A stretch of 64,000 bases of DNA from Bdellovibrionales bacterium. GTDB lineage: Bacteria > Bdellovibrionota > UBA1018. The position numbers and the translations under genes were made by a program. The notes under the pieces were generated by a model that saw nothing but the letters and a program-made list of their open reading frames with translations, was not told the DNA's origin and made no database searches. How positions within the stretch are numbered: position 1 is the stretch's first letter; each line of letters starts with the position of its first letter. The stretch is taken from positions 400,909 to 464,908 of the forward strand of contig JAFEAP010000029.1 in assembly GCA_018266355.1 (NCBI GenBank), in the 5' to 3' direction. Shown piece by piece: positions 1 through 39,372 of this stretch.

Positions 1-332
1 TCGTAACCGGCGTCGGCGTAGACTTTGTTGATGCATTCGAGGGTCGCGCCCTTGCTGCACGCTTTCGCGGCTTTCGCCCGATCGTAACCGGCGTCGGCGT
101 AGACGGTGTCGATGCACTCGATCGAGGCTTTCCCGCAGGCGATCGCGGCTTTCGCGTGATCGTAACCGGCGTCGGCGTAGACCTTATCGATGCATTCGTC
201 GGTCGCGCCCGCGGCGCAGATCTGCTCGGCTTTCGCGCGGTCGTAACCGGCGTCGGAATAGACTTTATCCACGCAGTTCGCGGAGGCGGAAGCGGCGACG
301 ACGAAGGAGAGGACGGCGATGGTCTTTTTCAC
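1..332 (-). CDS. Secreted Cys-bracketed tandem-repeat protein (3' end of gene runs off the window; N-terminus present)
   Basis: GTG start at 332-330 with GAGGAG SD 6 nt upstream. N-terminus VKKTIAVLSFVVAASASA is a signal peptide. It is followed by four or more ~27-aa repeats of the form C-I-D/N-K-V-Y-A-D-A-G-Y-D-R/H-A-K-A-A-x-A-C (about 81-nt DNA period). Stop of the upstream gene (336-338) lies 3 nt from this start, suggesting coupling. Confidence 0.6.
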   Translation of the reverse strand, partial: MKKTIAVLSFVVAASASANCVDKVYSDAGYDRAKAEQICAAGATDECIDKVYADAGYDHAKAAIACGKASIECIDTVYADAGYDRAKAAKACSKGATLECINKVYADAGY

Positions 333-335
333 GGC

Positions 336-824
336 TTACTCCTCGAGGATGTCTTTTTTCGGGACGCGCTTGAAGACCGCGCTGTCGCAAGGCTTACCGC
401 TGCGGGATTTGCAGAGTTCATCGAAAAGGTCCATGCCGAAGCGGATCGTCCGGCCGCGCCCGAGGCGGATGTCGCCTTGAAGCTTCGCCGCGACCTCGGG
501 CTTCATCGGGTATTCGGCCGCGGTGCCTTCGTCGTCGACGTAACCTTCCGGGAAGCGGTATTGCATCCGGAAGTTCCCTCCGTCGCAGAGGATGCGGTCG
601 GTGGTGAGGCCTTGGTTTTCCTTTTGTTCCGGAATCTGCTGCATCTGCACGCCGACGCAGGATTTCGGGATGTTCACGAAGGTGCCGACATGCGTTTCCA
701 GGTCGACGTGCTGCCAGAGCCCAGCGATCTTCGCGCAGTCGCACGGTTTCGCGGCCGTAACTTCGGCGAACGCCGGAACGGCGAGGAGCGAGAGGAGGAG
801 GGAAGCGAGGAGTTTCGTCTTCAT
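336..824 (-). CDS. Secreted hypothetical protein (163 aa)
   Basis: Internal ATG of ORF 336..950 gives MKTKLLASLLLSLLAVPAFA, a signal peptide with AFA-E cleavage. Contains several Cys. The overlapping plus ORF 156..851 is antisense. No family recognised. Confidence 0.6.
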   Translation of the reverse strand: MKTKLLASLLLSLLAVPAFAEVTAAKPCDCAKIAGLWQHVDLETHVGTFVNIPKSCVGVQMQQIPEQKENQGLTTDRILCDGGNFRMQYRFPEGYVDDEGTAAEYPMKPEVAAKLQGDIRLGRGRTIRFGMDLFDELCKSRSGKPCDSAVFKRVPKKDILEE

Positions 825-847
825 GGCTATTCCTTTAGTCGAAATCG

Positions 848-1561
848 TTAACGGGAGCGGTAGACGGCTTGGTCGAGGCCGATGCCGTAGATCGTGCCGT
901 TCGGGGTGACGGAGATGTTCGTCACCGCCGGGTCGGTCGCGGTCGCCCACGTGCCGTAGCTGCGATTCTTATAGATCGCCTGGTCGAGGCCGACACCGTA
1001 GATGTCGCCGTTCGGCGTGACGGAGATGTTCGTCACGGCGGGTTCGGTCACGCGTTCCCACGTGCCGTAGGCGCGGTTCTTATAGATCGCTTGGTCGAGA
1101 CCGACACCGTAGATGTCGCCGTTCGGAGTGACGGAAATGTTCGTGACGGCGGGTTCGGTCACGCGTTCCCAGGTGCCGTAGGCGCGGTTCTTATAGATCG
1201 CTTGGTCGAGGCCGATGCCGTAGATATCGCCGTTCGGAGTGACGGAGATGTTCGTCACCGCGGGTTCGGTCACGCGTTCCCAAGCGCCGAAGGCGGTCGT
1301 CCGGTAGACGGCCTGGTCGAGGCCGATGCCGTAGATATCGCCGTTCGGAGTGACGGAGATGTTCGTCACCGCCGGTTCGGTCACGCGTTCCCAAGCGCCG
1401 AAGGCGGTCGTCCGGTAGACGGCCTGATCGAGGCCGACGCCATAGATCGTGCCGTTCGCGGTGACGGAGATGTTCGTCACGGCGGGCTCGGTCACGCGCT
1501 CCCAAGCGAAGGACGAGGTCGTGGCCAGGCCGAGGACGAGCGCGGTCAGAAGGAATTTCAT
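848..1561 (-). CDS. Secreted tectonin / tachylectin-like 6-blade beta-propeller repeat protein (lectin-like)
   Basis: Start at internal ATG (aa 13 of ORF 848..1597) gives signal peptide MKFLLTALVLGLATTSSFA. Six ~40-aa repeats follow: W-E-R-V-T-E-P-A-V-T-N-I-S-V-T-P-N-G-D-I-Y-G-I-G-L-D-Q-A-I-Y-K-N-R-A-Y-G-T. This matches the W..ISV..G.IYG..D..IY pattern of tectonin-type propeller blades. Confidence 0.65.
   Translation of the reverse strand: MKFLLTALVLGLATTSSFAWERVTEPAVTNISVTANGTIYGVGLDQAVYRTTAFGAWERVTEPAVTNISVTPNGDIYGIGLDQAVYRTTAFGAWERVTEPAVTNISVTPNGDIYGIGLDQAIYKNRAYGTWERVTEPAVTNISVTPNGDIYGVGLDQAIYKNRAYGTWERVTEPAVTNISVTPNGDIYGVGLDQAIYKNRSYGTWATATDPAVTNISVTPNGTIYGIGLDQAVYRSR
851..1504 (-). repeat. 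Six near-identical 120-nt tandem coding repeats (tectonin-like blades)
   Basis: The DNA in 880-1500 shows a 120-nt period with only a few substitutions per copy (e.g. gtcgaggccgatgccgtagat...gtgacggagatgttcgtcac recurring). Consistent with recent expansion or concerted evolution. Confidence 0.8.
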
Positions 1562-1636
1562 GGGTGCGGATATAACGCAACGCACTAATTCTGTCACTCG
1601 ATATAAATATCTATTTAAAACGGATAGTTATATCGA

Positions 1637-3871
1637 CTACTCCGCGATCAGCTCGGCGCAGGTTTTCACCGGGATCTTCCGCGCGACGGCGTCGCCGTAG
1701 TCGTCGAAACCGAGATTATCCGCCGCCGACTTCATGATCGCGCAGACGGCGTCTTGGGCCGTTTTCGAGGATTTCAAGACCGCCTTCACCCGCGGGAGCT
1801 CGAGTGCGGCGTAGAAACCGGCGAGGTCCACGTCGTTCGAGACGGTGACCGAGGCGTGCTGTTTGAAAAGCATTTCGATGAAAGCCGGGTCCGATCCGGC
1901 GTTCTGCGCGAGCGAGAGGAAGCCGTCGAAGACACGGCTCGTGATGAGCACGTTCGGTTTCGAACGGGTCGTCGTGAATAGGTTCGCCACCGCTTCGGGG
2001 GAGAGTTTCGTCTCGCGGAGGGCGTAGATCATCTCGTCCGGACGGCGTCCGTCGGCGCGGGTGAGGAGGTAATTCAAGATGCGCTTCTGGTTCTCGTCGC
2101 CGCGGATCGGTTCGATCGCGAAGTAGCGCTCGATACCGTACCAGAACGGATGGTTCGGCGTGAGGTAAACGTCGACGAACGCGGTTTCGAGCAGGTCGAG
2201 CCCGGCGCGCATCGAATGGAGCGAGTCGGCGTAGGACATCTGGAGGGACGGCGTCGCCGCGCGGACCATCGCCGCGAGGGATGCCGCGGTCGCTTCGTCG
2301 GTCGCGCCGAGATTCGCCATCGCGCGGCCGCAGACGGGGCTGAGCGGGTTCAGGGGGAACTTCTCGCACTGGGAGCGAAGGCGGGCGAGGAGCGCGCGGT
2401 CGGCGTCCGTCGGTTCGAGGATCGCGGGACCGTCGACGAAGAGCGAGGCGAGGAGGTCGGTCGTCTGCCCGGACGAGATCGAGCGGTCCTTGTAGGCGTC
2501 GGCCGCGCGCGCGCGGAATTCCGGGTAGCGGGCGAGCCCGGTACAACGCATCGCCTGGACGGCGGACGCGACGTTGAAGTGGAACGGCTGGATCTTCGCG
2601 ACGACCGCCGAGAAATCGATCTGGTTCACGCCGGCGACGTTCAGCGAGCAAATGGTGTCGCCGAGTTCGGTCTCGAAATAGGGAGCGGCGAAGGCCGAGT
2701 CGACGAGCTGATAGATCGTCCGGACGAGGTCTTCGCGCGTGATCCACCCCATCAGGTGGGCGAAGCGCATCCACTCGATCTTCGTGACCGCGGTCTTCAC
2801 GTCGGCGATCGTCTCGAGGAGGATCTTTCTCGCGTTCGCGTTCGACTGGAGGCGGGCGAAGATCGCCGACTGGGTGGTCTTGATCTCGCGGATGTTCGCG
2901 CGCATGAAGTTTTGGATCGAGGGAAGGAGCATGAGCACCTTCTCGCTGTTCAGCATCACCTCGACGGAGAGGAGTCGGTCGGCGAGGGGGATCGACTTGT
3001 CGAAAAGCGCGCAGATTTGGATGTGGAACGCGTATTCGGGATCCTTCGGATCGAGGCCCGAGCACTGGGTGAAGGACTGACCCTTCATCGCGGACCCGAG
3101 CGCGGCGTTCGTTTCCGTCTTCGCGGAGGTCCCGCGGTCGACGATCGAGTCGAAGTGCTTCGTGAAATCGCCGAGTTTCCGCATGTAGTTCTCGAGGATC
3201 GGCTTCAGATCCTTCCCGAGCGGACTCGTCGAGAAGAACCCGTAGATGTACGGAACGCCCGAGAAGGCGCGCTGGACCTTGCCGCGGTTGTCCTGACCGA
3301 AAGCGCCGTAGCGATCCTCGACCACGCGGCGGGCGGTATCCGGCGAGTAACCGTCGTCGACGAGGACTTGGTAGTACTCGGCCGGCGTGCGGTGATCTTT
3401 TTCCTTCGTCGCGAGCGCGTTGCAGCCGAAGAGGTAAACCTCGCGCGGATTTTCCATGATGCCTTTGCAATCCTGGGCGCAAGAATGGTTCTCGAGCTCG
3501 TTCAGTCCGAGCGTATAACCGCTCGATCCGAAGAAACGGCCGGCGAAATGGCCGGAGACGACGTCGATGTCGCACTTGTAGTTCTTCTTGCAGGCGGCGT
3601 CGAACCAACCGGACTTCGCGCCGTTCGCCGCCGGTTCGGTGAGCTCGACCAGATCCCACTCGGCGGGATTCAAGTACTGGGTGAAGACGCCTTTTTCGTC
3701 GGACGAGTTGATCGTGATGAAACAGGCGAGGCGTTTCCCCTCGCGCGGGATGAAGACCGACGACGGGATCGGTTCGCGCATCTCGTAACGGCCGGAGTTC
3801 CGGGCGTGACCGAGGGAAAGGGCGGTGGCGGCGATTACGGACAGGGCGACGAACTCGCGGGGAAAGCGCAT
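1637..3871 (-). CDS. Large secreted hypothetical protein (744 aa)
   Basis: ORF 1637..3952. Internal ATG at 3871 follows GAGGAG SD and starts signal peptide MRFPREFVALSVIAATALSLGHA. High coding GC3. No recognisable catalytic motif. The overlapping ORFs 1716..3659(-) and 2150..4039(+) are off-frame/antisense artefacts. Confidence 0.6.
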   Translation of the reverse strand: MRFPREFVALSVIAATALSLGHARNSGRYEMREPIPSSVFIPREGKRLACFITINSSDEKGVFTQYLNPAEWDLVELTEPAANGAKSGWFDAACKKNYKCDIDVVSGHFAGRFFGSSGYTLGLNELENHSCAQDCKGIMENPREVYLFGCNALATKEKDHRTPAEYYQVLVDDGYSPDTARRVVEDRYGAFGQDNRGKVQRAFSGVPYIYGFFSTSPLGKDLKPILENYMRKLGDFTKHFDSIVDRGTSAKTETNAALGSAMKGQSFTQCSGLDPKDPEYAFHIQICALFDKSIPLADRLLSVEVMLNSEKVLMLLPSIQNFMRANIREIKTTQSAIFARLQSNANARKILLETIADVKTAVTKIEWMRFAHLMGWITREDLVRTIYQLVDSAFAAPYFETELGDTICSLNVAGVNQIDFSAVVAKIQPFHFNVASAVQAMRCTGLARYPEFRARAADAYKDRSISSGQTTDLLASLFVDGPAILEPTDADRALLARLRSQCEKFPLNPLSPVCGRAMANLGATDEATAASLAAMVRAATPSLQMSYADSLHSMRAGLDLLETAFVDVYLTPNHPFWYGIERYFAIEPIRGDENQKRILNYLLTRADGRRPDEMIYALRETKLSPEAVANLFTTTRSKPNVLITSRVFDGFLSLAQNAGSDPAFIEMLFKQHASVTVSNDVDLAGFYAALELPRVKAVLKSSKTAQDAVCAIMKSAADNLGFDDYGDAVARKIPVKTCAELIAE

Positions 3872-3901
3872 AGAGACACTCCTCGGGGGGCTCTGCCTAT
3901 A

Positions 3902-3917
3902 GCGAGGGACGTGCCAG
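3902..3917 (-). promoter_or_regulatory. Candidate sigma-54 (-24/-12) promoter TGGCAC-N5-TCGC upstream of the 744-aa secreted protein gene
   Basis: Minus-strand sequence cTGGCACgtcccTCGCt has GG and GC in the canonical 10-nt register (consensus TGGCAC-N5-TTGCW, one mismatch). It lies about 30 nt upstream of the start at 3871. A sigma-54-type activator (ntrX-like) is encoded at 57705. Confidence 0.3.
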
Positions 3918-4031
3918 CGCGGACGGCGCCGAGTGCCCGAAATGACGAGCATTTTCGGACCCCTTCGTTTCCCGACCGTCTAAGGTTTAGACGGTCGAAA
4001 CCGGAGCTGAACGGCGATTTCCGTTTTCGAT

Positions 4032-7000
4032 TTATTTGAACGTCGCCAAGCAGGCGGCGTCGGCCCCGTTCGGAGATACGGTCCAGGAATGACTGAACGT
4101 TCCCGTGGCGTTCACGATCCGGAAAAGCGATTGGCCGGCTTCCCGGGAGGAGTTGTCCCGTTCGCTCGCGGCGAGATTCCAGTTCAGATTGTCATAGGTC
4201 CAGGTCGCCGTCGGATTTCCCCCGCCCGCCGCGGTCGCCACGAGGAACTCGTCGGAAGCGGTCGTCGCCGCCGTCGTGCCGGTCGATACGATGCCGACCG
4301 ACGTATCGTCGTGATTGCATATCGTCCGATCAAGCGGATTCACCGTATCCAGACCGGAGATCTCTTGGGCGACGGTCTGCGGATATCCGCTCGTGGTGAC
4401 GGTGAGCGTAAGGGGGCCCGAGGCGACGATGTTTTTCGCGTAAAATATGCTCGCGCCCTGGCCGATCGAATTCGCATCCGCTGCGGCGGGAACGTACGTG
4501 TTTCCGGCGCTGTCGGTGACTGTCGTCGCGTTCCCCGCCCATGTCCAGACGGATACGACGATCGTGTTACCGGCGGTCGCGTCGAAGGAGAACCGCGGAT
4601 TGACCGAAGACCCGAATCCGCCGTTCGCGTAGGTGCTCGTTTGAACGACCCTTATCGGAGGGGCCGCGACCGGATCCGATCCGCTGGCGAGGAACTTGAT
4701 CGGGTCGATCCATCCGTTTCCGGACACCCATCCCCAGCATTTCACGGCACCGCTCGTGAGCGCGGCGCACACGTGATAATCGCTGAGAGACGTTTGGAGA
4801 GCGTTCGTCACGCCGCTCACGACGTTGTCGATCGGGTCCGAAGGGTTCTGGTATCCTTCGAGTCCGAGAATCCCGTGCCCACCGTCCCCCCAGCAGCGGA
4901 TGAGACCGTTCGAAAAAGTCGCGCACGTCGTATCTTCGCCCGCCGAAACCGAAGCGACGTCCGAAAACCAATTCACGTTCGCCGGAAGGTCGTGACCGGT
5001 CGTCGTTCCGTCGCCCAACTGGCCGCGGCCGTTCGCACCCCAGCAGCTCAAAGTCCCGTCGCTGATCAGCGCGCAAGTGTGGTTCAGACCGAGTGCCATC
5101 CCGACGACGTTTCTCAGGCCGACGACGAGAGCGGGTGCCGGACGATCCGTTTGGGTACCGTCGCCGAGTTTTCCGTTCGTGTTCTTGCCCCAGCATCGCG
5201 CCGTCCCGTCGGTTAGGACCGCGCAGGTGTGTTGACCGCCGCGGTGGGAAGCGTAAATCGAGGCGATGTCGGAGAGGGGCACCGTGAAAGGGACGAGCTG
5301 ATCGACGGTATCTCCGGTTCCGAGTTGTCCGACGTCGTTCTTGCCCCAGCATTTGGCAGTGGCGTCGGCTAGTCGCGCGCAGAAATAAGCCCGTCCTCCG
5401 GTGATTTGGGTCGCGTTCGCGATGCCGCTGACGGTGGTGACGTTGAAATTCATGGAAATGTCGTTATCGCCCCGCTGCCCTACGTCGCCGGCTCCCCAGC
5501 ATTTGATCGTGCCGTTCGCGAGCAGGGCGCAAGCCGTGTGCTCGGCGGTCGCGATTTGGATCGCCGTCGTAATGCCGGCGATCGTTTCGGGCGTGGTGGC
5601 GTATCCCGGTTGATTCACAGGCCCGAGCTCACCCTGGTTTCCCGTCCAACCGAAACACTGAACGGCGCCGTTCGCGAGCCGTGCACACTCACCCGATTCG
5701 GTGGTCTCGACTTGGACCGCGTTCGCGACGCCCGGGTAGGCCTGGGCGGGCACCACGTCTTCGGTCCCGAAATCGCCGTGATGCCCTCCGGCCGGGCCCC
5801 AGCATTTCGTCCGGTCGTTTTCGATCACGCAACGATCCGCGTATCCGGTAAGGCTGATCGCGGAAGTGATTCCACCCACCGCCACCGGCGTGAGGCTGGA
5901 CGAGAGGTTGCCGGTGCCGAGCTCGCCGATGCCGTTGTCGCCCCAACACTTGACCGAGCCGTTTTGAAGGAGAGCGCAAGTCGAGAGGAAGCCGGGATTG
6001 GCGAATGCCGCCGCCGTAATTCCGGTGGGTATTCCCGTCGCGTAATCGTCCGAGAGGGTCGAACCGTTCCCGAATTGTCCGAAGGAATTGTCGCCCCAGC
6101 ATCGCATCGACCCGTCGGTCAGCACGGCGCAGGACGTATTATATCCCATCGCGATTTGTGCGACGCCGGTCAGATCGGTGGCACCGTCGATTTTCACGTA
6201 GGCCGGAACGATCGAGCCGCTAAAGCTGCCGTTTCCGACGTAACCGCCTCCCCAGCATTTAACGCGCCCGTCGGCGATCAAGGCGCAGGCTCCGAAAGCG
6301 CCCATCGCGACCCGGACCGCGCTCGTGACTCCGGATACCGCCACCGGCGCGCATCGGTCGGTCGTCGTTCCGTCGCCGAGTTGGTGATTGCCGTTGCTTC
6401 CCCAGCACTGGACGGTCCCGTCGGCGAGTACCGCGCAGGCCGAATTTCCCATGGTCGCCGCGGCGATATCGACCGCCGTCGAGATCCCGGAGACGGTGAC
6501 GGCGTTCGGAATGGAGTCCGCGCAGTTTCCGTCACCTAACTGTCCGTTCGCTCCCGCTCCGGAGCATTGGACGGTGCCGTCGGAATTTCGCATGCAGAAG
6601 AAATTTTCGCTCCCTGAGATTTGGGACGCGAGAGAGACGTTCGTCAGCGGATAAGGCGTGCCGGTTCCGCCCCACATTCCCGAAACGGCTGCTCGACCGT
6701 CGGCGTATCGCACGGCCATTCCGTTATGGGTGAGGGCGACGCCGGCGAGCGGCGATGGATTCGTGCCTTCGAGGCTGAGCAGTAATCCGATGGAACCGCC
6801 TACCGCGCAGGAAAATCCGAGCGTCGTTCCCGGTCGTACTCCGGTGGCGATCGGATGCCCGCGAACGACGGCGGTGCAATATCCGTTGACCGGAACGCTG
6901 ACGCCGCAGTCCGTGGAAACAAGATCGAAATCGGTCGAAGAAAGCGTCGGCGAGGAGCAACCGGTGGCGTCCGCCGTTCCGTAATTGGTGAATCTCACGG

Positions 7001-7574
7001 GATGGTCGGAGGTGTAAAAGCCGACGCCGACCTTTCCGAGATCGCCGTTCGTCGTGTCGACCGCGTGGAGAATCGGCGCGGCTGCGATTCCGGTCGCCTG
7101 GATGCCGTCGGCCGTGGTGGTCACCGTGCCGCCGTTCGCGCAGTTACGGGACAAGGTAGCGGTCTTCACTCCGGTTCCGGCCAGCACCGTCCGCACGTAC
7201 ACGTAGCAAGTATCGCCGACGGCGAGGTCCGCGGTACCGCATCCGTCGATCGATATTTCGAAATCGGCGGCGTTCGTGCCCGCGAGGGTGGGCGCCGAGC
7301 ACCCCACGGCGTCGGCGGGACCCGGATTCGTGAAACCGAATGCGATGCTACCCGTCTTTCCGTATCCGAACGCGTTCGAGCCGAAATCATGGGCCAATTT
7401 CGTCCAACTCGGGTTCGTCGGAACCAAGGGCACGAACGGGACGACGATCGTCGTCTGCCCCAGGGTGCTCAACGTACGAATTTGAGTTCCGCATCCGCAA
7501 ACGGCGGAACACGCGAGCGTGAGCGCGAGCCACGTCCGACGTGAAATGACGCGAATGGGATGCCGAGATTCCAA
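4032..7574 (-). CDS. Giant lipoprotein with N-terminal Cys-rich ASH/choice-of-anchor-like domains, a central RCC1-repeat beta-propeller array and a C-terminal beta-rich region
   Basis: TTG start at 7574 with GGAGGAA SD 7 nt upstream. Lipobox-like LTLACSAVCGC. More than 10 repeats of the RCC1 signature (G.V.CWG.N..GQLGDG.T..). Confidence 0.7.
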   Translation of the reverse strand: MESRHPIRVISRRTWLALTLACSAVCGCGTQIRTLSTLGQTTIVVPFVPLVPTNPSWTKLAHDFGSNAFGYGKTGSIAFGFTNPGPADAVGCSAPTLAGTNAADFEISIDGCGTADLAVGDTCYVYVRTVLAGTGVKTATLSRNCANGGTVTTTADGIQATGIAAAPILHAVDTTNGDLGKVGVGFYTSDHPVRFTNYGTADATGCSSPTLSSTDFDLVSTDCGVSVPVNGYCTAVVRGHPIATGVRPGTTLGFSCAVGGSIGLLLSLEGTNPSPLAGVALTHNGMAVRYADGRAAVSGMWGGTGTPYPLTNVSLASQISGSENFFCMRNSDGTVQCSGAGANGQLGDGNCADSIPNAVTVSGISTAVDIAAATMGNSACAVLADGTVQCWGSNGNHQLGDGTTTDRCAPVAVSGVTSAVRVAMGAFGACALIADGRVKCWGGGYVGNGSFSGSIVPAYVKIDGATDLTGVAQIAMGYNTSCAVLTDGSMRCWGDNSFGQFGNGSTLSDDYATGIPTGITAAAFANPGFLSTCALLQNGSVKCWGDNGIGELGTGNLSSSLTPVAVGGITSAISLTGYADRCVIENDRTKCWGPAGGHHGDFGTEDVVPAQAYPGVANAVQVETTESGECARLANGAVQCFGWTGNQGELGPVNQPGYATTPETIAGITTAIQIATAEHTACALLANGTIKCWGAGDVGQRGDNDISMNFNVTTVSGIANATQITGGRAYFCARLADATAKCWGKNDVGQLGTGDTVDQLVPFTVPLSDIASIYASHRGGQHTCAVLTDGTARCWGKNTNGKLGDGTQTDRPAPALVVGLRNVVGMALGLNHTCALISDGTLSCWGANGRGQLGDGTTTGHDLPANVNWFSDVASVSAGEDTTCATFSNGLIRCWGDGGHGILGLEGYQNPSDPIDNVVSGVTNALQTSLSDYHVCAALTSGAVKCWGWVSGNGWIDPIKFLASGSDPVAAPPIRVVQTSTYANGGFGSSVNPRFSFDATAGNTIVVSVWTWAGNATTVTDSAGNTYVPAAADANSIGQGASIFYAKNIVASGPLTLTVTTSGYPQTVAQEISGLDTVNPLDRTICNHDDTSVGIVSTGTTAATTASDEFLVATAAGGGNPTATWTYDNLNWNLAASERDNSSREAGQSLFRIVNATGTFSHSWTVSPNGADAACLATFK

Positions 7575-26502: not shown

Positions 26503-28842
26503 ATGAAACGTTTTCTCCCGCTATCGACGCTCCTTCTGACCCTCGCGGCTCCGGCGATCGCCGTCGAACCCGGGGCCGCGCCGAGCGCGGTTCCTTCCTT
26601 AGGGCCCGCGACCGAGACCGCTTCGGTCGGGACGGTCACCGTCGCCGGCACGCTCTTCGAGAAAGGGACGAAGAAGCCCGTCGCCGACGCGAACGTCTAC
26701 GTCCTTCCCGCGAAATTGAAGGGGACGACCGACGCGGAAGGGAAGTTCCGGATCGAAGGCGTGCCCGAGGGCGAGTTCGAAATCCTCGTGAACCTCACCG
26801 GCTATAAGAAATTCTCGCGCGTCGTGCAGCAGTCCGCCGCCGAAGGGGAGTTCGAGCGGTCGGTTTACCTCGAGCGCGATTCCTACCAGGTCTACGAAAC
26901 GACGGTGTACGGGAAACTCGATTCCGGCGACGACTCGGCGAAGAGCCTGAAGGCTTCGGTCGCGCAGAAACTCCCGGGAGCGAACAACGATCCGATCAAG
27001 GCCGTGCAGAACATGCCCGGCGTTTCGCGCACGAACGGGTTTTCCTCCCAGGTCATCATCCAGGGCTCCGCGCCCCAAGACACGCGCTACACAATCGACG
27101 GGCACGAAGTTCCGATCATCTTCCACTTCGGCGGCTATTCCTCGGTCGTGCTCCCCGAAGCGCTCGACCGCGTCGACTACCTCTCCGCCGGTTACGGCGT
27201 CGAGTACGGACGCGCGATGGGCGGGATCGTCGGCGTGTGGACGCGGAAGCCCGATCGCGATCGGTTGAAGGGATTCGCTTACGCGGATTTCATCAACGCC
27301 GGGGCGGCGATCGAGACGCCGGTCGGGGAGAAGGGTTCGCTCACGCTCGGTCTCCGTCGGAGCTACATCGGCGAGCTCCTGAAGGAAGCCGACAAGCACA
27401 AGAAGGACGACGATAAGAATTCGGACGCTGACCTGACGGCGGCGCCGACGTTCTCGGATTTCACCGCGGTTTACGATACGCCGCTCGGCGATCGGGACGA
27501 CCTGCGCGTCGACCTCATCGCGTCCCAGGACTCGCTCGGGTTCGTGCTCAAGGATTCGCCCCAGAACGACCCGAAGATCCGCGGCGATTTCGAGACGAAG
27601 ACCTCGTTCGTCCGGCTGATCCCGCAGTGGACCCACCGGCACGGCGAGGGCACGACGAGCCGCCTCTCGCTCGGCCTCGGCCGCGATTGGTCGAAGTTCA
27701 TCCTCGCCGATCAGTACTTCCGCCTTTACCTCTATACGATCACCCAGCGCTACGAGCTCGAACGGAAATTTTCGGAGGACTTCACCTCGACGCTCGGCCT
27801 CGATAACTCTTTCGGATGGGCGAAGGTCGCGATGAATTTCCCGGATTTCTACGCGGCGGGCGGCATCTCGAATCCGGTCTCGACGGGAACGAGCCGCCGC
27901 GTCGGCATCTCGTCGAACAGCCAGAACTTCGGCGCGTACTGGAATAACGACTGGAAATTCGCTCCCGAGTGGTCGTTGAAACCCGGTCTGCGTTTCGATT
28001 ATTTCAGCGTCGTGAACGAGGCCCACGTCGCCCCGAGACTCGCGGTAAAGCGTTCGCTCTCGCCGTATTCTTCGGTGCGTTTCGCGACCGGTCTCTACTA
28101 CCAACCGCCCCAGCCCCAGGAAACCGCGGAAGGCGTCGGAAATCCCGAGCTGACCGCTCCGCGCGCGACGCACTTCGCGATCGGATACGAGGAAGACTTC
28201 CGGAGGGGTTCCTCGAAAGGCGTGATCTTCACCGGCGGACCGTTCTACCGGAAATTCGACGATCTCGTCGTCGCTTCGAGCGCGACGACCACCCGGAACG
28301 GCGTCACGACCCCCGAATATTATAACAATAACGGGTCCGGCCGCGCGTACGGCGTCGAGATGCTCGTCCGGTACGAGGCGAATCCTTGGAACGCGTGGCT
28401 TTCCTATACGGTCGGGAGAAGCACGCGCGTGCAGCCGGGGCAGCCCGAGTATCCTTCCGCCTACGACCAAACCCATAACTTGAACCTGATCGTCGGCAAG
28501 GACCTGCCTCGGAACTGGCGGGTCGCGGGGCGCTTCCGCTACGTCACCGGGAATCCGATCACTCCGGTCACCGGATCCGTTTTCGACGCCGATAACGACG
28601 CCTACATCCCGATCCGCGGCCCCTACTACAGCGAGCGCATCGGCCCCTTTTACCAGCTCGACCTCCGCGCGGATAAGAAGTGGATCTTCAATACCTGGGT
28701 CCTGACCGCCTACCTCGACGTCCAGAACGCGACGAACCACAAGAACACCGAAAACGTGAGCTATGCCTACGATTACTCGCAGCGGACCGACGTCACGGGG
28801 CTGCCCATCATTCCCGCGCTCGGCTTGAAAGGGGAGTTTTAA
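26503..28842 (+). CDS. TonB-dependent outer-membrane receptor with N-terminal carboxypeptidase-regulatory-like domain
   Basis: Signal peptide, CarbopepD_reg-like domain, plug (DPIKAVQNMPGVS…), 22-strand barrel ending in an aromatic terminal residue (GEF). Confidence 0.8.
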   Translation: MKRFLPLSTLLLTLAAPAIAVEPGAAPSAVPSLGPATETASVGTVTVAGTLFEKGTKKPVADANVYVLPAKLKGTTDAEGKFRIEGVPEGEFEILVNLTGYKKFSRVVQQSAAEGEFERSVYLERDSYQVYETTVYGKLDSGDDSAKSLKASVAQKLPGANNDPIKAVQNMPGVSRTNGFSSQVIIQGSAPQDTRYTIDGHEVPIIFHFGGYSSVVLPEALDRVDYLSAGYGVEYGRAMGGIVGVWTRKPDRDRLKGFAYADFINAGAAIETPVGEKGSLTLGLRRSYIGELLKEADKHKKDDDKNSDADLTAAPTFSDFTAVYDTPLGDRDDLRVDLIASQDSLGFVLKDSPQNDPKIRGDFETKTSFVRLIPQWTHRHGEGTTSRLSLGLGRDWSKFILADQYFRLYLYTITQRYELERKFSEDFTSTLGLDNSFGWAKVAMNFPDFYAAGGISNPVSTGTSRRVGISSNSQNFGAYWNNDWKFAPEWSLKPGLRFDYFSVVNEAHVAPRLAVKRSLSPYSSVRFATGLYYQPPQPQETAEGVGNPELTAPRATHFAIGYEEDFRRGSSKGVIFTGGPFYRKFDDLVVASSATTTRNGVTTPEYYNNNGSGRAYGVEMLVRYEANPWNAWLSYTVGRSTRVQPGQPEYPSAYDQTHNLNLIVGKDLPRNWRVAGRFRYVTGNPITPVTGSVFDADNDAYIPIRGPYYSERIGPFYQLDLRADKKWIFNTWVLTAYLDVQNATNHKNTENVSYAYDYSQRTDVTGLPIIPALGLKGEF

Positions 28843-31887: not shown

Positions 31888-34800
31888 TTAGAAACGGTAG
31901 GGAATGCGAAGGAATCGGTCACCGCAGAAATAGACGGCTTCCGAGGGGTTCGCCACGGTTGGCTCGGTGCGTGCGAGCCAGTCACAATCGTCGGTGAGCG
32001 TCTGGATCCGAAGTGCGGCGGGGCGAATCAAATCGACGCTCACGCCGTTCTTCCGAAGCGGCACGATGAGCTCCGCGCCCGGGTAAGCGCCGAAACCGTC
32101 GGGGATTTGGATCGCGGGCAACCGGACGCCGTCGCTCTCCGCGACCGCCGGAATGAACGTGCGCTCGAAGAGCGCGGAGGCGAGGAAGGTGTATCGGCGA
32201 AGCGACGTGAGGAGATTCTTCTCCGTCGTCGAGTCCCGGTAAATCACGTCGTAGTTCGCTTGGATGAACGCCGCGAGGCCCGTCGGCGCGGAGGCCGGCC
32301 CCTCGCTGAAGGCGGCGATCGTCTTGTAGGCGGTATCCGCGGCGGAATCCGGAGTCACCTTGCGGTCGAGCACGAGGTACCGGTCGCCCGCTTTCACGAC
32401 GCCGCTCACGCGCTGGGAAGTCACGCTCGAGTTGCCCGCGAACGTCGTCGCCGCGGCGAGCGGGTTCGCGTCGAGCGCATAGGCCTTGATGCTTTCGACG
32501 GCTTGGAGATTCCGGAAACGCGGGACTTCGACCGGGTAGACTTTCGGAGCGGCGCCCGCGGCCGAGACTTCCATCGCGAAGACCTTCGCGAAGTAATCGC
32601 CCGTTTCCGTGATCAAGATCGCGATCCGGCCGGCTTTACGGTCGGCCGCGCTCTGGTTCAGCAGCGAAAGGAAACTCGTATCCTTCGGGAGGATCGAGTC
32701 GTTCGGCATCGCGATCGAGCGCACGCCGTCTTCCGTCGCCGGATCGTGATAATAAAGGTGCGCGTCGGCGTCCTCGTCCTTGTACGCGTTCGGATTCCAC
32801 GGATCGAACTTCTTCTGCTCCGCTTTCGGAGTCATGCCGGCGCCGGCCCAAGCCTGGACCAGGCGGTCTCCGGAACGGAGCCACTGGAAGCGGTCGAGCT
32901 GGAGGACGGCCGTGCGGTTCTTGAAGAGGTAGGACGGAAGGACCTCGTTCCCGTCCGCGTCGCGATAGTCGAAGCGGAAATACGGGAGGTGGTCCTCTTC
33001 CTCGCTCGGGATGTAGACCGAGAAAACGTAATCGGGTTTGCCGTCGAGATTCACGTCGAGGCGCTGGGCGGTCCGGGGCGCGCCGTTTTCGACGGCGGGC
33101 ACGGGTTTGACGGGGCCGGCGACGTAGTGGCGGGCGCCTGCGTCGCGGACTTCGCGGATGATCTGGTAGTTCCAAGTCTCATCTGTGCGTTCGATCGAGA
33201 CGTAATCCTGCTCGGGGCGCCCGTCCATCGACTGGACGGAGAAAATCACGCCGTTCGGGTTCACCTTGCCCTCGACCGGGATCGTGACGGCGTTCGGGAG
33301 CTTCGCGTCCTTATCGAGGACGACGGAAATCTGGAGGGGGATGCGGATCTTCTGGGCCGGGCCGCCGTCGGCGGAAATCTCGAGGACGAGCGTCGCGTCG
33401 GAGGTCAGACGCGGATCGAGGACCGCGAGCGCGGTCTCGAGCGAGCGCACCTCGCCGGATTTCCAATTCGCGAGCGAGAACTCGGCCTTCTTCACCCGGA
33501 TTTGCCCGAGCTTTTCGTCGCGCTTCGAGAGCGTGAGTCGGGCGCGGACTTTTTTCGCGGTCTTCCAGATGTTTTTCAGGTCGATCGCGAGTTCGGCCTC
33601 GTTCGCCTTGCGGTCCCAGAGGGTCGGGTAGACGCCCTTGTTTTCGGGCGTGAAGAACGGCCGAGGCGCGATCGAAATCGCGCGGGAAACGTCGAGATTC
33701 CCCGTCAGGACGACTTTACCCTCGGAGTACTCCATCGGGCGCGCTCCGGCGAGGAGCCGGGCGATCGTTTCGCCGTAGGAATATCCCTGCGAACGCAGGA
33801 TCGCGGCGGCGCCCGCGACGTACGGGCTCGCGAACGAGGTCCCGCTGTCGAAGTCGTAGCCTTGGCGATCGGTGAAATAAATCGGATCGGCTTCGCGGTC
33901 GATCGTCGAGAGGATGCTGAATCCCGGGGCGGCGAGGTCGACGCCCGAACCGAAATTCGAGAACTCCGAGATCTTTCCGTCCGGATCGTGCGCGCCGACG
34001 CAAACGACGCCTTCGTACTGGCACGGGAAAACGAGCGCGTCGGTCGAATCGTTTCCGGCGGCGGAAACGACGATGATTCCCTTTTCCTGGGCGGTCTTCA
34101 CGGCGTCGCGCATGAGCGGGGAGTCGGCGCGACCGTTCCATCCGAGGGAGAGGTTGATCACGTTCGCTTTTTCGGCGATCGCGTAAAGCATCCCGCGGAC
34201 GACGGTCGAAACGAGGCTCATCGCCTTTTCCGGATCCGAGACGCCGTTCGTCTCGGCGCCCGGTTCCTCGGTGATCACGCGCACGCCGAGGATCTTCGCC
34301 TTCGGCGCGATGCCGCGGACGCCGACGCCGTTATTCGCGATCGCGGCGATCACGCCGGCGACCTTCGTGCCGTGGCCGGAACCTTCCTCGAACTGCTCTG
34401 CGATGTCGGGCGAGCCGTATTGGCCGGAGACCTTCGATTTCTTGCCGACGAAGTTCCATCCGTGGCAGTCCATCGGATAGCCGTTCCTGTCGGCGTCGAG
34501 CTTCAGGTACTGGTTGTCGCAGGTCGTGCTCGGCTTGTTCGCGGCCTTCGCGTCGGCGACGCAGGCGTTATATTTCGCGAGATTCTCGCATTCGGCGGTC
34601 TTCGTGACGAACTGACCGGAGAGGTCCTCGTGATCGGCGTCGAATCCGGAGTCGAGGACGGCGACGACCATCCCCGCGCCTTCTTTCGAATAGGAGGGTA
34701 GGTGGACGTCCTCGCCGATCTTCCCTTTCACGACGATCGAGGTGAAGTTATCGAGGTAGAATTTGCGGGAGTCGCCGTTGTTCGAAATGCCCCAGAGTTC

Positions 34801-35154
34801 GGGCGAAAGCGGATCGCGACCGTTCAGCGACCGCGCCTTCACCTTGCGGTCGACTTCGACCTTCAGGTGGAGGTTCTTCGCGCGAACGGTGACGTCGGCC
34901 GCGACGTTCCCGGGCGCGACGAGAAGGGTCGCCGCCATGTCGGGCCGGCCGAGCTTCAGGAGAAGCTTCTGCTCGTTCTCGGTGAAGAGCGGCGCGGTCC
35001 GGATGGTCTTTCCGGCCGAAGCGCGGAATTTCGCGAGATTCGCCGCCTTACCGGTGAGGATGAGGTTTTCCGCGCGCGCGGCGCCCGCGGTCAGCGCCGT
35101 CGAGACGAGGAAGGCGGTCGAAAGGAGGGCGAGCCGGGATCCGAGCTTCGTCAT
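31888..35154 (-). CDS. Large secreted subtilisin-like serine protease (S8) with ~600-aa C-terminal extension
   Basis: Signal peptide. Catalytic triad motifs VAVLDSGFD, GHGTKVAG, GTSFASPYVAG. 1088 aa. Confidence 0.8.
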   Translation of the reverse strand: MTKLGSRLALLSTAFLVSTALTAGAARAENLILTGKAANLAKFRASAGKTIRTAPLFTENEQKLLLKLGRPDMAATLLVAPGNVAADVTVRAKNLHLKVEVDRKVKARSLNGRDPLSPELWGISNNGDSRKFYLDNFTSIVVKGKIGEDVHLPSYSKEGAGMVVAVLDSGFDADHEDLSGQFVTKTAECENLAKYNACVADAKAANKPSTTCDNQYLKLDADRNGYPMDCHGWNFVGKKSKVSGQYGSPDIAEQFEEGSGHGTKVAGVIAAIANNGVGVRGIAPKAKILGVRVITEEPGAETNGVSDPEKAMSLVSTVVRGMLYAIAEKANVINLSLGWNGRADSPLMRDAVKTAQEKGIIVVSAAGNDSTDALVFPCQYEGVVCVGAHDPDGKISEFSNFGSGVDLAAPGFSILSTIDREADPIYFTDRQGYDFDSGTSFASPYVAGAAAILRSQGYSYGETIARLLAGARPMEYSEGKVVLTGNLDVSRAISIAPRPFFTPENKGVYPTLWDRKANEAELAIDLKNIWKTAKKVRARLTLSKRDEKLGQIRVKKAEFSLANWKSGEVRSLETALAVLDPRLTSDATLVLEISADGGPAQKIRIPLQISVVLDKDAKLPNAVTIPVEGKVNPNGVIFSVQSMDGRPEQDYVSIERTDETWNYQIIREVRDAGARHYVAGPVKPVPAVENGAPRTAQRLDVNLDGKPDYVFSVYIPSEEEDHLPYFRFDYRDADGNEVLPSYLFKNRTAVLQLDRFQWLRSGDRLVQAWAGAGMTPKAEQKKFDPWNPNAYKDEDADAHLYYHDPATEDGVRSIAMPNDSILPKDTSFLSLLNQSAADRKAGRIAILITETGDYFAKVFAMEVSAAGAAPKVYPVEVPRFRNLQAVESIKAYALDANPLAAATTFAGNSSVTSQRVSGVVKAGDRYLVLDRKVTPDSAADTAYKTIAAFSEGPASAPTGLAAFIQANYDVIYRDSTTEKNLLTSLRRYTFLASALFERTFIPAVAESDGVRLPAIQIPDGFGAYPGAELIVPLRKNGVSVDLIRPAALRIQTLTDDCDWLARTEPTVANPSEAVYFCGDRFLRIPYRF

Positions 35155-38100
35155 AAGCCGTCTCCGAAGTAGCGCGCCTGCAGTTCGTAGTCCGAGATCT
35201 GCCAGTCTTGGCCGTTCGTGTAGACCTTCAGGTCGCGGAACGGCCCGAGGGAGACCGGCGTCTGAACGGTCCCGATCGTGTCGGTCACGTAATCCGTTTC
35301 CCCGTTCTTGTTTTGGGCGTTCTCGTCGCCTTTACGGAAACCGCTGACGCGGACTTGGAAGAAGAAGTTTTCCTTACCGATCCGATTCAGGAAACGCGAG
35401 ACGTCGAGGTGTTTGTTCACGAGGTAAATCGTGGTCGAGAGCCATTCGGTGTATTTTTCCTTCTGGTCGCGCGGCGGGGCGTTCCGCACGTGGCGCATCA
35501 CCTTCCGCATCCAGGGTTGGATGCAGCGGTTCCAGATCTTCTTCTTCGCCTTCTCGTCGTCGAGTTTCTCGAATTGCTCGAGATCGGGTTCGATCTTCCG
35601 GTCGGCGAAATAATTTCGGCAACGTTTCCGGTAGTCTTCCGGATCGACCCAGTCGAGGAGATTCAGCATCAATTCCTGGCGCGACTTCGGGCCGAAGAAC
35701 TCCTTCTCGATCTTATCGACCGCGCTCGGGTAGAGGAGCACGCTCGAACGGATCTCGTAGGCTTGGAGCTGCGTCGTGGACGCGAACATGTCGCGGCGGA
35801 AAATCGGCGAACCGAGGTTCAAATCGTTCACCTCGCCTTGGAGGCGATCGAGGATCTTCAGCAGCTTGTCCTTCGCGAGGAACCATCCCGAGTAATAGTC
35901 CTCGAGGATGAGCATCGGTTTGAACTCGCGTCCCGGGGTGACTTCGGCTTCGGCGCGGACCTGGCTCCAATTCGCGGAACCGAGGAACGTTCCCGACGGG
36001 TTCTGGTTCGTCCCCGAATCGAGGAGGCCCCCGACGCCGACGGCTTTCGAGAGGACTTGGCCGACGAGCCCGTACGGGTTCTTGCCCGAGAGGTTCATTT
36101 TCCGCGCGCTGTAGAGCGTGCGCGTCTCGCCCTTCACGTCGAAAACGTGGAGCGGATCGGCCGGAGGAGTCAGCGAAACGCGGTTCGTTTCCGCGTAGTT
36201 CGCCCAGTTCCAAAGCAGCACCTTCGCGCTCCGGGATTTCCCCTTCAGGTCATGGTGGATGGCGTACGGCGGGGCGATCTCCTCCGCGCGGTCCATCTCG
36301 TTCTTGAACATGAGATCGGAGATCGCCATGAGGAGTTTTTTCCGGTCGCCCGCGAGCTTATCGTCTTTCGCCTTGTCCTCGTCGGTGACCGAGGAAAGGT
36401 CGAGCATGAGGGCGTCGGTATCGGCCGTGCCCTTCTTTTTGTTCGCGGCGACTTTCGCGAGTTCGATCCAAGCGGTGAAGTTCACCGCCCCGCCGAGCGC
36501 GCGCGTGTTCATCTTCGTGTCGTAGACGGTGAACTGATCGCCCTTGCGCATGAACATCAGTCGTTTCAGGATCGCCCACTGGCCGGTGACGCTCACGCCG
36601 ACCGAGGGCGCGATCTTTCCGTAGAGGTCCTTACCGACGAGGTCCATCACGCCCATGCCCGCGATCGTAGTGAGCGGAATTTGGACTTGGGGCGTGATCT
36701 GGTTCACGTAGGAATCGGTGATCGTGTAGACTTCGTTGTCGCGGACGTCGTCGAGGAAGCCCTTCAGCGTGCTGAGGACGACGGTGTCTTCGAGGTCTTC
36801 CGGGAGCTTCGACGGAATTTCCGGGTCGGAAGAGACGTCGGGAATCTCGCGGCCCTCCGGAAGCGCCGAGCCGAAAGTTTTTTCGTAGAGCGCTTTCACG
36901 TTCGGCGTCGGATCGACCGGGGCCGGGTATTTTTTCGCGTCGAAGTCGCAGCCGTCGTACGGAGCTTTCAGCCCCTGGGCCTCGCAGACCGTCTTCTTCG
37001 TCGTATTGTAAGCGGTGAGCTGCTTTTGGTACGCTGGCCAGAGGGTGTTCGAATTCTTCGCCCAGCTCCGCTGGGCCTCGTCGTAAGCGCCTTCGAAGGC
37101 GACGAACTTCCGGTGGAGGACTTTCCAGGTGAGGACCTTGCTCGTGCCCTTCAGGAAGCCCGGTACGAAGAGGTTCTTCCACTTCTCGTTCTTCACCGCT
37201 TCGAGCGAAGCGATCGGACGGACGTGGGTGTAGGTGCGCTGGTAGGTGACCGAGGCGCCGAAGCCGAAGTTCTGGAGGTAAGTCCGGCCGTCGACGCCGC
37301 CGAACGCCCCGACGCTCGCGCCGACGATGAAATTATCGACGAGCTGGGCCTTCGAATCGGAGCCGTAGTAGGTGCCGGTCACGAGCGAACGCGAGGCGTT
37401 CATCTGCAGGCCGTAGAGCGGCTGGACCCACGGCTTCAGCGGCATCACGTACGGATCGTTCGGATGCTCCTGGAAGTGCTTCACGATGTCGTCGAGGAGG
37501 TTCTGCTTGTGGGCGTCGACCCCGTCGGTCACGTCCTTGAACTGGAGTTCTTTGTTGATCTTATCGGTGAGCGCATGGATCCCTTGGGCGAGGGTTTCCA
37601 TCTTCACGTAGTGCTTCAGCTCGCTCCACCGAAGCGGCGAGGCCGGGTCGCCGACCGTGAACCGCGCGGCATAGTTCGGGTAGTATTCCTGGGTGGCTTC
37701 GCCTTTCACGACGGCGCCAGTCGAAATATAGACGTCGTAGGGCAGCTTCGCCGGGACTTCGCCCCCGAGGTTGAAGATTTGAATCATGTGGTTCCGGCGC
37801 GCGACGACCTTCTCGAGCAGCAACGCGGAAATATCGGCCGGGTAATTCGCCTGGTCGATGATCGCCTTCAGTTCCGGTTTCGTGAGTGCGCCGATCTTCC
37901 GCGCGGCCCATCGCGCGTCCTCGTACGTCGTTTCCTTGAACGCGGTGACGTACTCGTGCGAGAGCATGATGTTTTCGCCGAAGATCCGGGCGAATTCCCA
38001 AGGGAAGATGTTCACGCTATTTTCGGAGAGACGGACGTCGAGGAGCATGAGCGGGATGATGAGGGCCCGCATCGCGCGGTGGCCCGCGATCCACGCGGTG

Positions 38101-38768
38101 TTGATCTTGCCGTTATAGAGCTGGGGGACGTCGATCCGCGGGTATTCGAGGTTCACGTCCTGGAGGCTGACGACGAGGTTCTTTTCGTCGACCGCTTTCA
38201 GCCACCGGTCGCGAGAGAACTCGGTTTCGAACGCGAAGTTCTCGACGAAGTTCTTCATCTGCTCGGCGGTGTCGAATCGGACGGCGAGGTTCTTGTAATG
38301 TTTAGGCATGTCGACCGGGTAGCCGAGCGCGCGAAGCATGGCCGCGGTCATGATCGCCTGATGGTTGTCCATGTCGACGACGAGACGGAACGGGCGATTG
38401 TAGAATTCGACTTGGCCCCGGTACATGCCGTTCGGCTCGACGTCGTTCAGGAAATGCACCTGGGATCCGTCGCCCGGATAACCGAACTTGTCGGCGTTCG
38501 AGATCGGAAGCTTCGCCGGTTGCCACGGGTCGCTCGGGATCGGATCGAGCGTCGAGAGGTCGAATCCCTTTTTCATGAGCGCGGTCGCTTCGTCGCGGTC
38601 GATCGCGCGGCCTTGGTAGACGAGGTCGATCGCCGGTGCGCCCGTCGTCTTGATCTCCATCGGGAGTTCGTTCGGGGAGTCCGCCGCGCGCACGGTAGAC
38701 GAAACGCTTCCGCCGAGAACGACGAGAGTGACGAGCGCGAGATGAATGAGGTTCCGCGGCAGTTTCAT
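35151..38768 (-). CDS. Giant secreted hypothetical protein (1205 aa) cotranscribed with the S8 protease
   Basis: Internal ATG at 38768 preceded by GGAG SD. Signal peptide MKLPRNLIHLALVTLVVLGGSVSSTVRA. 4-nt overlap with the protease start. No recognisable domain. Confidence 0.65.
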   Translation of the reverse strand: MKLPRNLIHLALVTLVVLGGSVSSTVRAADSPNELPMEIKTTGAPAIDLVYQGRAIDRDEATALMKKGFDLSTLDPIPSDPWQPAKLPISNADKFGYPGDGSQVHFLNDVEPNGMYRGQVEFYNRPFRLVVDMDNHQAIMTAAMLRALGYPVDMPKHYKNLAVRFDTAEQMKNFVENFAFETEFSRDRWLKAVDEKNLVVSLQDVNLEYPRIDVPQLYNGKINTAWIAGHRAMRALIIPLMLLDVRLSENSVNIFPWEFARIFGENIMLSHEYVTAFKETTYEDARWAARKIGALTKPELKAIIDQANYPADISALLLEKVVARRNHMIQIFNLGGEVPAKLPYDVYISTGAVVKGEATQEYYPNYAARFTVGDPASPLRWSELKHYVKMETLAQGIHALTDKINKELQFKDVTDGVDAHKQNLLDDIVKHFQEHPNDPYVMPLKPWVQPLYGLQMNASRSLVTGTYYGSDSKAQLVDNFIVGASVGAFGGVDGRTYLQNFGFGASVTYQRTYTHVRPIASLEAVKNEKWKNLFVPGFLKGTSKVLTWKVLHRKFVAFEGAYDEAQRSWAKNSNTLWPAYQKQLTAYNTTKKTVCEAQGLKAPYDGCDFDAKKYPAPVDPTPNVKALYEKTFGSALPEGREIPDVSSDPEIPSKLPEDLEDTVVLSTLKGFLDDVRDNEVYTITDSYVNQITPQVQIPLTTIAGMGVMDLVGKDLYGKIAPSVGVSVTGQWAILKRLMFMRKGDQFTVYDTKMNTRALGGAVNFTAWIELAKVAANKKKGTADTDALMLDLSSVTDEDKAKDDKLAGDRKKLLMAISDLMFKNEMDRAEEIAPPYAIHHDLKGKSRSAKVLLWNWANYAETNRVSLTPPADPLHVFDVKGETRTLYSARKMNLSGKNPYGLVGQVLSKAVGVGGLLDSGTNQNPSGTFLGSANWSQVRAEAEVTPGREFKPMLILEDYYSGWFLAKDKLLKILDRLQGEVNDLNLGSPIFRRDMFASTTQLQAYEIRSSVLLYPSAVDKIEKEFFGPKSRQELMLNLLDWVDPEDYRKRCRNYFADRKIEPDLEQFEKLDDEKAKKKIWNRCIQPWMRKVMRHVRNAPPRDQKEKYTEWLSTTIYLVNKHLDVSRFLNRIGKENFFFQVRVSGFRKGDENAQNKNGETDYVTDTIGTVQTPVSLGPFRDLKVYTNGQDWQISDYELQARYFGDGL

Positions 38769-38889
38769 GGGACTCCTGGGCCGGCGGTTCATATCAAAAA
38801 TGACGCGCGGTGTAAAGACTGAGTGGCGACTTCCGCAACCGAAGTGCAGGAGGACCTGGCTGGGGGGTATTATTTCACGTCCGTGAAAC

Positions 38890-39372
38890 TTAAGGGGATT
38901 CGATCCACTCGCAGGCGACTTCCGATGAAGGCCCGAGCGGCAGCGTGCCGGACCGCTTCTCATGCATCGAGCGGCTCGTCTTCTCGTAGGCGAATAGAAT
39001 GTCGATCCGTTCGTTTTCGTTCTGAACCAAGCTGAGATGGACGTTCTTCGCTGAAAGCGTGAAGCCATTTTTCACGGTAGCGTCCGAGATTTCGAATGAG
39101 TCGTATTCGCGGTATTCGGCAGGAATTTGGTTCACCGGCTTCTCGGCTAGAAGAAGATTCACCATGCTTTCGCTCAAGTTCGGCGTTAATTTCCGGATTT
39201 TTTCCGCCGTCATGGGGATCACCAGCGAAGCCAAAAAGTGCTTTCCGGATTTGGAGATCGAAAGGATCGCATCGTTCGACGTGCATTTCAGTATTTCGAT
39301 CGGTTCAGCGGCGCCTGCCGAAGCGAGGCTGGCGATCAGGGCCAAGGCGAGCGGGGCGAATGTCCGTTTCAT
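38890..39372 (-). CDS. Small secreted protein (160 aa), low-GC
   Basis: Signal peptide MKRTFAPLALALIASLASAGA. Cys near both termini. Locally reduced GC. Confidence 0.55.
   Translation of the reverse strand: MKRTFAPLALALIASLASAGAAEPIEILKCTSNDAILSISKSGKHFLASLVIPMTAEKIRKLTPNLSESMVNLLLAEKPVNQIPAEYREYDSFEISDATVKNGFTLSAKNVHLSLVQNENERIDILFAYEKTSRSMHEKRSGTLPLGPSSEVACEWIESP

Follow-up and report, generated by a model that had tools for sequence, protein, structure and literature searches.

The window, i.e., the whole stretch of 64,000 nucleotides analysed here, derives from the metagenome-assembled genome (MAG) of an uncultured Bdellovibrionales bacterium and carries a minus-strand gene whose product was assigned to the tectonin family by sequence profile. 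The coding sequence is one open reading frame, with an ATG at 1561 and a stop codon at 848–850 (Table 1), and the original prediction of a six-blade tectonin-like lectin had delimited exactly this single gene, stop codon included. The third-position GC content (GC3) of 0.84 matches the expectation for a real gene in a genome of 62% GC. A plus-strand reading frame at 869–1588 was discarded as an artefact mirroring the GC-rich gene on the minus strand, the GC3 filter over 848–1597 being passed by the minus-strand frame only. A foreign origin by composition was also rejected, the GC content of the gene being that of its surroundings and of the genome. An exact-sequence look-up of the protein in protein collections, in versions of 237 aa and 249 aa, returned no match, and no further copies of the repeat were found elsewhere within the 64-kb window.

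Table 1. Features of the tectonin locus, in window coordinates.
Feature	Position	Strand	Remarks
Tectonin-like CDS	848–1561	minus	237 aa plus stop; based on ORF list and translation, GC3, Pfam Tectonin and AF2 model
Signal peptide MKFLLTALVLGLATTSSFA	1505–1561	minus	predicted cleavage after SFA, immediately ahead of the first Trp
Repeat unit 1	1394–1504	minus	aa 20–56; tail type AVYRTTAFGA
Repeat unit 2	1283–1393	minus	aa 57–93; mosaic
Repeat unit 3	1172–1282	minus	aa 94–130; tail type AIYKNRAYGT
Repeat unit 4	1061–1171	minus	aa 131–167
Repeat unit 5	950–1060	minus	aa 168–204; DNA identical to sister-strain contig L008
Repeat unit 6	851–949	minus	aa 205–237; shortened, most divergent (WATATD...AVYRSR); DNA identical to L008
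Most recent duplication or conversion tract	1203–1426	minus	two 111-nt copies in tandem, out of phase with the blade register
162-aa secreted Cys-containing protein, MBS1963654.1	336–824	minus	starts 23 nt after the tectonin stop
Cys-rich protein gene, 5' part	1–332	minus	3-nt gap after the 162-aa gene; runs off the window
Upstream intergenic region	1562–1636		AT-rich, 75 nt
771-aa protein	1637–3952	minus	upstream of the tectonin gene

Downstream of the tectonin gene, the secreted Cys-rich protein is built from tandem repeats of 27 aa (81 nt) with the pattern C(I/V)(D/N)KVYxDAGYDxxKA...C, at least four units of which precede the window edge. The same order of tectonin, 162-aa and Cys-repeat genes was found in a sister strain of 96% nucleotide identity (GCA_039810405.1, contig JBDHWY010000359.1, hereafter L008), where a 70-aa version of the Cys-repeat protein (790–1002) has two units only; two units versus at least four may reflect either copy number variation or assembly collapse. 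From the spacing of the genes, the tectonin gene is possibly co-transcribed with those downstream of it. Pfam and NCBIfam searches gave no match for the 162-aa and 771-aa neighbours, and AlphaFold2 gave no usable model for the 162-aa one (pLDDT 44). The 162-aa, 771-aa, RCC1 and 234-aa proteins neighbouring the gene in the window were not found in loci L001–L007, which harbour relatives, and a Pfam search of the neighbours of the Sorangium and Bacteriovoracaceae copies gave no match. A second, unrelated β-propeller lies near the tectonin gene, in a minus-strand 1180-aa protein with RCC1-like repeats (4032–7574; WD40_RLD, 248 bits).

The N-terminus of the tectonin protein was judged by eye to be a putative Sec/SPase I signal peptide, with Lys in the n-region, a hydrophobic core of 11 residues and small residues at −3 and −1. 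It suggests export, which would bring the protein at least to the periplasm as a mature form of 218 residues (20–237). The leaders of the Sorangium and Polyangium homologues end in A-x-A with the first Trp coming next, and leaders ending right before the first Trp fit a mature N-terminal Trp that closes the ring, like Trp3 in Tectonin 2 of Laccaria bicolor (Lb-Tec2).

The product begins with MKFLLTALVLGLATTSSFA, after which six units of 37 aa, the sixth cut to 33 aa, are arranged head to tail with the consensus WERVTEPAVTNISVTPNGDIYG(I/V)GLDQA(V/I)Y(R/K)xxxxGx. Tandem Repeats Finder returned a period of 111 nt (5.8 copies, 89% matches, score 814) and a repeat search a start-to-start spacing of exactly 111 nt, replacing the period of 120 nt given originally. 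In the blade register, the units share 74–93% of nucleotides and 73–97% of amino acids pairwise (median 78% at the amino acid level), the longest exact in-register repeat being 59 nt. Nei-Gojobori estimates gave a dS between units of 0.26–0.86 and a dN/dS of 0.04–0.56. Given this substantial dS and low dN/dS, fresh duplication does not account for most of the array, and purifying selection acts on every blade. The original description of the repeats as nearly identical DNA does not apply to the array overall; it does apply to one stretch.

This stretch was revealed by comparison in a register shifted by about 80 nt, in which 1203–1315 and 1314–1426 agree at 112 of 113 nt, the sole difference being 1262 versus 1373. 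Unit 2 is correspondingly a mosaic, its first 80 nt differing from unit 3 at one position and its last 33 nt equalling unit 1 exactly. The near-identical pair and the mosaic unit are what a very recent duplication of one unit, or a gene-conversion tract, leaves behind. Recombination is still acting on the array, as the mosaic unit shows.

The original prediction had pointed to tectonin or tachylectin profiles, and the tectonin half of it was confirmed. Tectonin PF19193 matched with E = 1.6e-21 and 77.2 bits against a gathering threshold of 30, in two stretches of which the best covers residues 18–162. Tachylectin PF14517 was missing from the 15 Pfam families that the window protein matched at E ≤ 1, and one relative (P0016) reached 25.5 bits with it, which is sub-threshold. 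An NCBIfam search of the tectonin protein returned noise matches only.

AlphaFold2, run without an alignment, yielded a model with pLDDT 83.6, pTM 0.79 and 24 β-strands in a 6 × 4 pattern. The model thus predicts six four-stranded blades forming a closed β-propeller ring, in keeping with the blade number originally read from the sequence. Units of 37 aa with one four-stranded blade apiece also agree with the tectonin family, whose tandem repeats measure about 33–38 residues. A Foldseek search against the PDB placed Lb-Tec2 (5fsb/5fsc) at ranks 1–3 by E-value (E 2e-15, TM 0.78–0.84, 20% identity) and also listed carp fishelectin and the Photorhabdus PLL lectins. Designed Pizza6 propellers, the PknD sensor and NHL propellers were listed with TM values of 0.80–0.82, as high as that of Tectonin 2. 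With TM values this high for non-lectin six-bladed propellers, the fold alone says "six-bladed propeller" and offers no argument for a lectin; the tectonin assignment comes from the sequence profile, not from the fold. In phmmer, Tectonin 2 was the sole PDB sequence aligned over the full length (E 0.25, not significant alone). We hold the gene structure, the tectonin family and the six-blade fold, taken alone, with high confidence.

Among characterised proteins, Lb-Tec2 (PDB 5FSB/5FSC) is likewise a stand-alone six-bladed propeller of about 225 residues without any other domain, and its repeats of about 37 residues have the same W...(I/V)...G...(I/V)Y(R) spacing. In the fungus it is a defence lectin of the cytoplasm, specific for O-methylated mannose and fucose, whereas the window protein has a predicted bacterial signal peptide, and the blades are far more alike in the window protein (median 78% at the amino acid level) than in Lb-Tec2. 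In the sixth site of Tectonin 2, Ser200, Asn216 and Tyr222 form hydrogen bonds, while Trp3 and Tyr222 stack on the ligand (review PMC6359319). The inter-blade sites of Lb-Tec2 employ the Tyr of IYR and a Trp that the following repeat contributes, both of which are kept in the window protein, where the phmmer alignment showed the repeat-opening Trp and the Tyr of (I/V)Y(R/K) in six of six units.

The remaining contacts differ. The WG(V)N motif that marks the family, WGVN in Lb-Tec2, is absent: all six units read (I)YG(I/V)G-L-D, with Trp replaced by Tyr and the hydrogen-bonding Asn by Gly, at an overall identity of 20%. The Ser of the Lb-Tec2 site aligns with Ala. The Asp two residues beyond (G-x-D) is invariant across the subfamily alignment and, judging from this conservation, might stand in for the missing Asn. 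Hydrophobic sites of the PLL type need two Trp residues (PMC12203525), and the window protein has one per repeat unit. With Asn changed to Gly, Ser to Ala and one Trp per unit, glycan binding is a plausible hypothesis, and no specificity can be transferred from the known tectonins.

The Photorhabdus lectins PLL and PHL are bacterial tectonin-related propellers whose sites lie between adjacent blades and are multivalent within one chain (PMC12203525). Unlike the six-bladed window protein, they have seven blades, about 340–370 residues and two rings of sites, one hydrophobic and one polar. Neither the seven blades nor the two conserved Trp residues per hydrophobic site were found in the window protein, and the TM values were 0.54–0.58.

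Highly repetitive β-propellers have been defined by a run of two or more blades whose median identity to one another exceeds 60%, and 10,474 such domains were counted in 32 ECOD families (Pereira & Lupas 2022, PMC9218822). The authors describe continuous amplification from single blades, with variable blade numbers, and warn of assembly errors (PMC9218822). The window protein belongs to this category, with a median of 78% and a maximum of 97% over six units. In the accessible parts of the main text and supplements of that study (PMC9218822), tectonin goes without mention. Compared with the cases described there, the present locus adds nucleotide evidence of a mosaic recombinant unit and parallel homogenised arrays in Bdellovibrionota and Myxococcota.

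A word-indexed homologue search retrieved five proteins, and an exhaustive profile search 3115 cluster representatives at E ≤ 1e-3, of which 45 remained at E ≤ 1e-30; many are long multidomain proteins. Four of the strongest matches to the repeat (P0006, P0007, P0010 and P0011) are long and Cys-rich, have 'CCV' motifs within the blades and low-complexity Pro-rich linkers, and look eukaryotic or viral, not bacterial. A scan of 185,579 species, using narrow peptide patterns on one genome per species, confirmed four close relatives, only in Sorangium, Polyangium and Bacteriovoracaceae; the fourth, in Sorangium So ce375, is fragmentary. One more locus (L007) was confirmed but is distant, at 29% identity. 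A scan of metagenome contigs with alignment gave no confirmed relatives.

The homologue from Sorangium sp. So ce134 (CP150314.1; L003, 6001–6723), encoded on a complete chromosome, is 59% identical to the window protein and matches Pfam Tectonin with 78 bits. Like the window protein, it has a signal peptide and then six units of 37 aa, 240 aa in all; unlike it, it has lineage residues of its own (EGSVT, LDKAVW) and other neighbouring genes, without unit-to-unit orthology. In Polyangium sp. 6x1 (L004, 5989–8100), five tectonin-like units are fused, in a secreted protein of 703 aa, to a PLD-like domain (PLDc_2 with HKD motif), and further relatives carry astacin (P0022) or RTX repeats (P0041). 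Modules that confer binding or targeting on secreted effectors usually occur in fusions of this sort.

Within the window, Sorangium and Polyangium proteins, the mean nucleotide identity of units was 0.80–0.84, compared with 0.51–0.75 between proteins. Cross-species unit matrices showed no diagonal, the units grouping by species and not by position, and each species has residues common to all six of its units (EPAVTN/LDQA in the window protein versus EGSVT/LDKAVW in Sorangium). The grouping by species and the shared lineage residues imply that either a single blade was amplified once the lineages had diverged or the units have evolved in concert. The recent duplication or gene conversion claimed at the outset thus finds support locally, in the 112/113-nt pair and the mosaic unit 2, and globally, in this grouping by species. 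Across the 56 relatives in which three or more units were detected, unit identity had a median of 43% and exceeded 60% in nine proteins, with the Sorangium protein (84%) and the window protein (78%) at the top. Lineage-specific amplification or concerted evolution is a phenomenon already described for propellers.

Hints of differences in unit number, which the original prediction had considered possible between strains, were seen among relatives, and assembly artefacts explain them equally well. For the Bacteriovoracaceae homologue of Hainich groundwater, two replicate assemblies from the same well at 3–5x coverage disagree: one shows five units (L001, 372–1313) and the other four (L002, 2365–3186), the difference being an exact 111-nt indel in otherwise identical DNA over about 1.5 kb. 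In the MAG copy of this gene (L005, 6001–6643) a run of N lies inside the array. The Hainich proteins also have a non-propeller, charged C-terminal tail of about 100 aa. The sister-strain contig L008 ends inside its tectonin array (1–274), where units 5 and 6 equal those of the window without a mismatch and are preceded by a partial unit, a hybrid between window units 3 and 4. These hints of variable unit number can be explained equally well by unequal crossing-over and by short-read assembly.

Taking these observations together, we propose that the gene encodes an exported six-blade tectonin propeller with a multivalent glycan-binding role, whose array arose by single-blade amplification; for this statement as a whole our confidence is slightly better than even. 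Each repeat would form one four-stranded blade, the six blades closing into a β-propeller ring in which, going by the example of Tectonin 2, the contact with the last blade would be completed by Trp20, the first mature residue. Between the blades there would be six almost equivalent pockets, lined by the repeat Trp and the Tyr of (I/V)Y(R/K), which could serve the multivalent, avidity-driven binding of a surface ligand with a repeating structure, probably a glycan that belongs to the envelope of another cell or to the bacterium's own surface. The protein would represent a stand-alone version of the module that occurs joined to secreted hydrolases or toxins (PLD-like, astacin, RTX) in its relatives. 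One blade-sized unit would have been amplified within this lineage, with unequal recombination or gene conversion presumably reshaping the array still and purifying selection maintaining the function of every blade.

One alternative concerns the ligand. A tectonin-fold propeller could function without sugar binding, its six symmetric pockets or top face accommodating a protein, a lipid or a small ligand, as a periplasmic or secreted scaffold, inhibitor or adaptor; we regard this as possible but rather unlikely. The loss of the Asn and Ser that contact the sugar in Lb-Tec2 speaks for it, as do the equally good structural matches to six-bladed propellers that bind proteins or act as sensors (NHL, PknD, Pizza) and the invariant Asp (G-x-D) in place of the usual family motif, which suggests a different chemistry. 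Moreover, non-glycan binders exist among eukaryotic TECPR proteins, TECPR1 being reported as a sphingomyelin sensor (PMC10476172). Against this, every stand-alone tectonin propeller retrieved here that has been characterised structurally and biochemically (Lb-Tec2, fishelectin, the PLLs) is a lectin, the aromatic pair typical of CH-π sugar stacking is present in each unit, and the six-fold repetition of one site is the classic way by which lectins attain avidity.

As to the array, the number of units might be an assembly product, the true gene having more of them (by collapse of the 99%-identical pair) or fewer, with the differences among relatives being artefacts too. A metagenome-assembled source, two tandem 111-nt copies one base apart, which short reads count unreliably, the end of the L008 contig within the array, the N run in the Bacteriovoracaceae MAG and the low coverage behind the five- and four-unit versions all lend themselves to this explanation. 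We nevertheless consider it improbable, since each unit in the window has its own set of substitutions with the frame intact, units 5 and 6 recur in an independent assembly without a mismatch, the complete Sorangium chromosome also encodes a signal peptide and six units, and six units give a confidently closed ring in the model. Six units as the genuine architecture are supported by the complete Sorangium chromosome and by the confident closed-ring prediction. The similarity of the blades could alternatively stem from strong purifying selection on an old six-blade gene, without recent duplication or gene conversion. The dS between most units, together with the low dN/dS, agrees with such a history, yet selection at the protein level fails to explain 112 of 113 identical nucleotides with synonymous sites included, and it leaves unexplained the sharp mosaic breakpoint in unit 2, the lineage residues common to all six units (EPAVTN...LDQA; EGSVT...LDKAVW) and the complete absence of positional orthology. 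We deem it very improbable.

If the lectin proposal is right, the window protein would be a compact, almost six-fold symmetric bacterial tectonin with a mature length of 218 residues and six equivalent sites, and it would offer a natural scaffold for protein design as well as a probe of tectonin recognition without the usual Asn. In addition, a tectonin lineage, with recombination evidence at the nucleotide level, joins the documented propellers recently amplified from one blade. The restriction of the close relatives to Bdellovibrionota and Myxococcota suggests, as a speculation, a role in cell-cell or prey-surface recognition. A bolder version would make the arrays active recombination hot spots with real within-population variation in blade number (4, 5 or 6) in these phyla best known for predation, which would adjust a secreted lectin for prey envelopes in its valency or specificity, with YGxGxD marking a new tectonin ligand specificity; we find this version quite unlikely. 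We conclude that the locus clearly exemplifies a protein type and a mode of repeat evolution that were both known before. It does not overturn current understanding and would not surprise a specialist.

The spacer between the tectonin and 771-aa genes contains a 19-nt imperfect palindrome (1598–1616/1618–1636) and three GATATAA sites; five such sites occur in the 64 kb, against 0.94 expected. These elements are a possible promoter or operator of the tectonin gene or, alternatively, a possible terminator of the upstream 771-aa gene, and a scan of 1–4200 for sigma-70-like promoters found no site. Farther along the window, a TonB-dependent receptor is encoded at 26503–28842, and the regions 31888–39068 and 49285–50676 hold two subtilase (Peptidase_S8) genes, for proteins of 1088 aa and 463 aa, together with a 1305-aa reading frame without a family match directly upstream of the larger subtilase gene.
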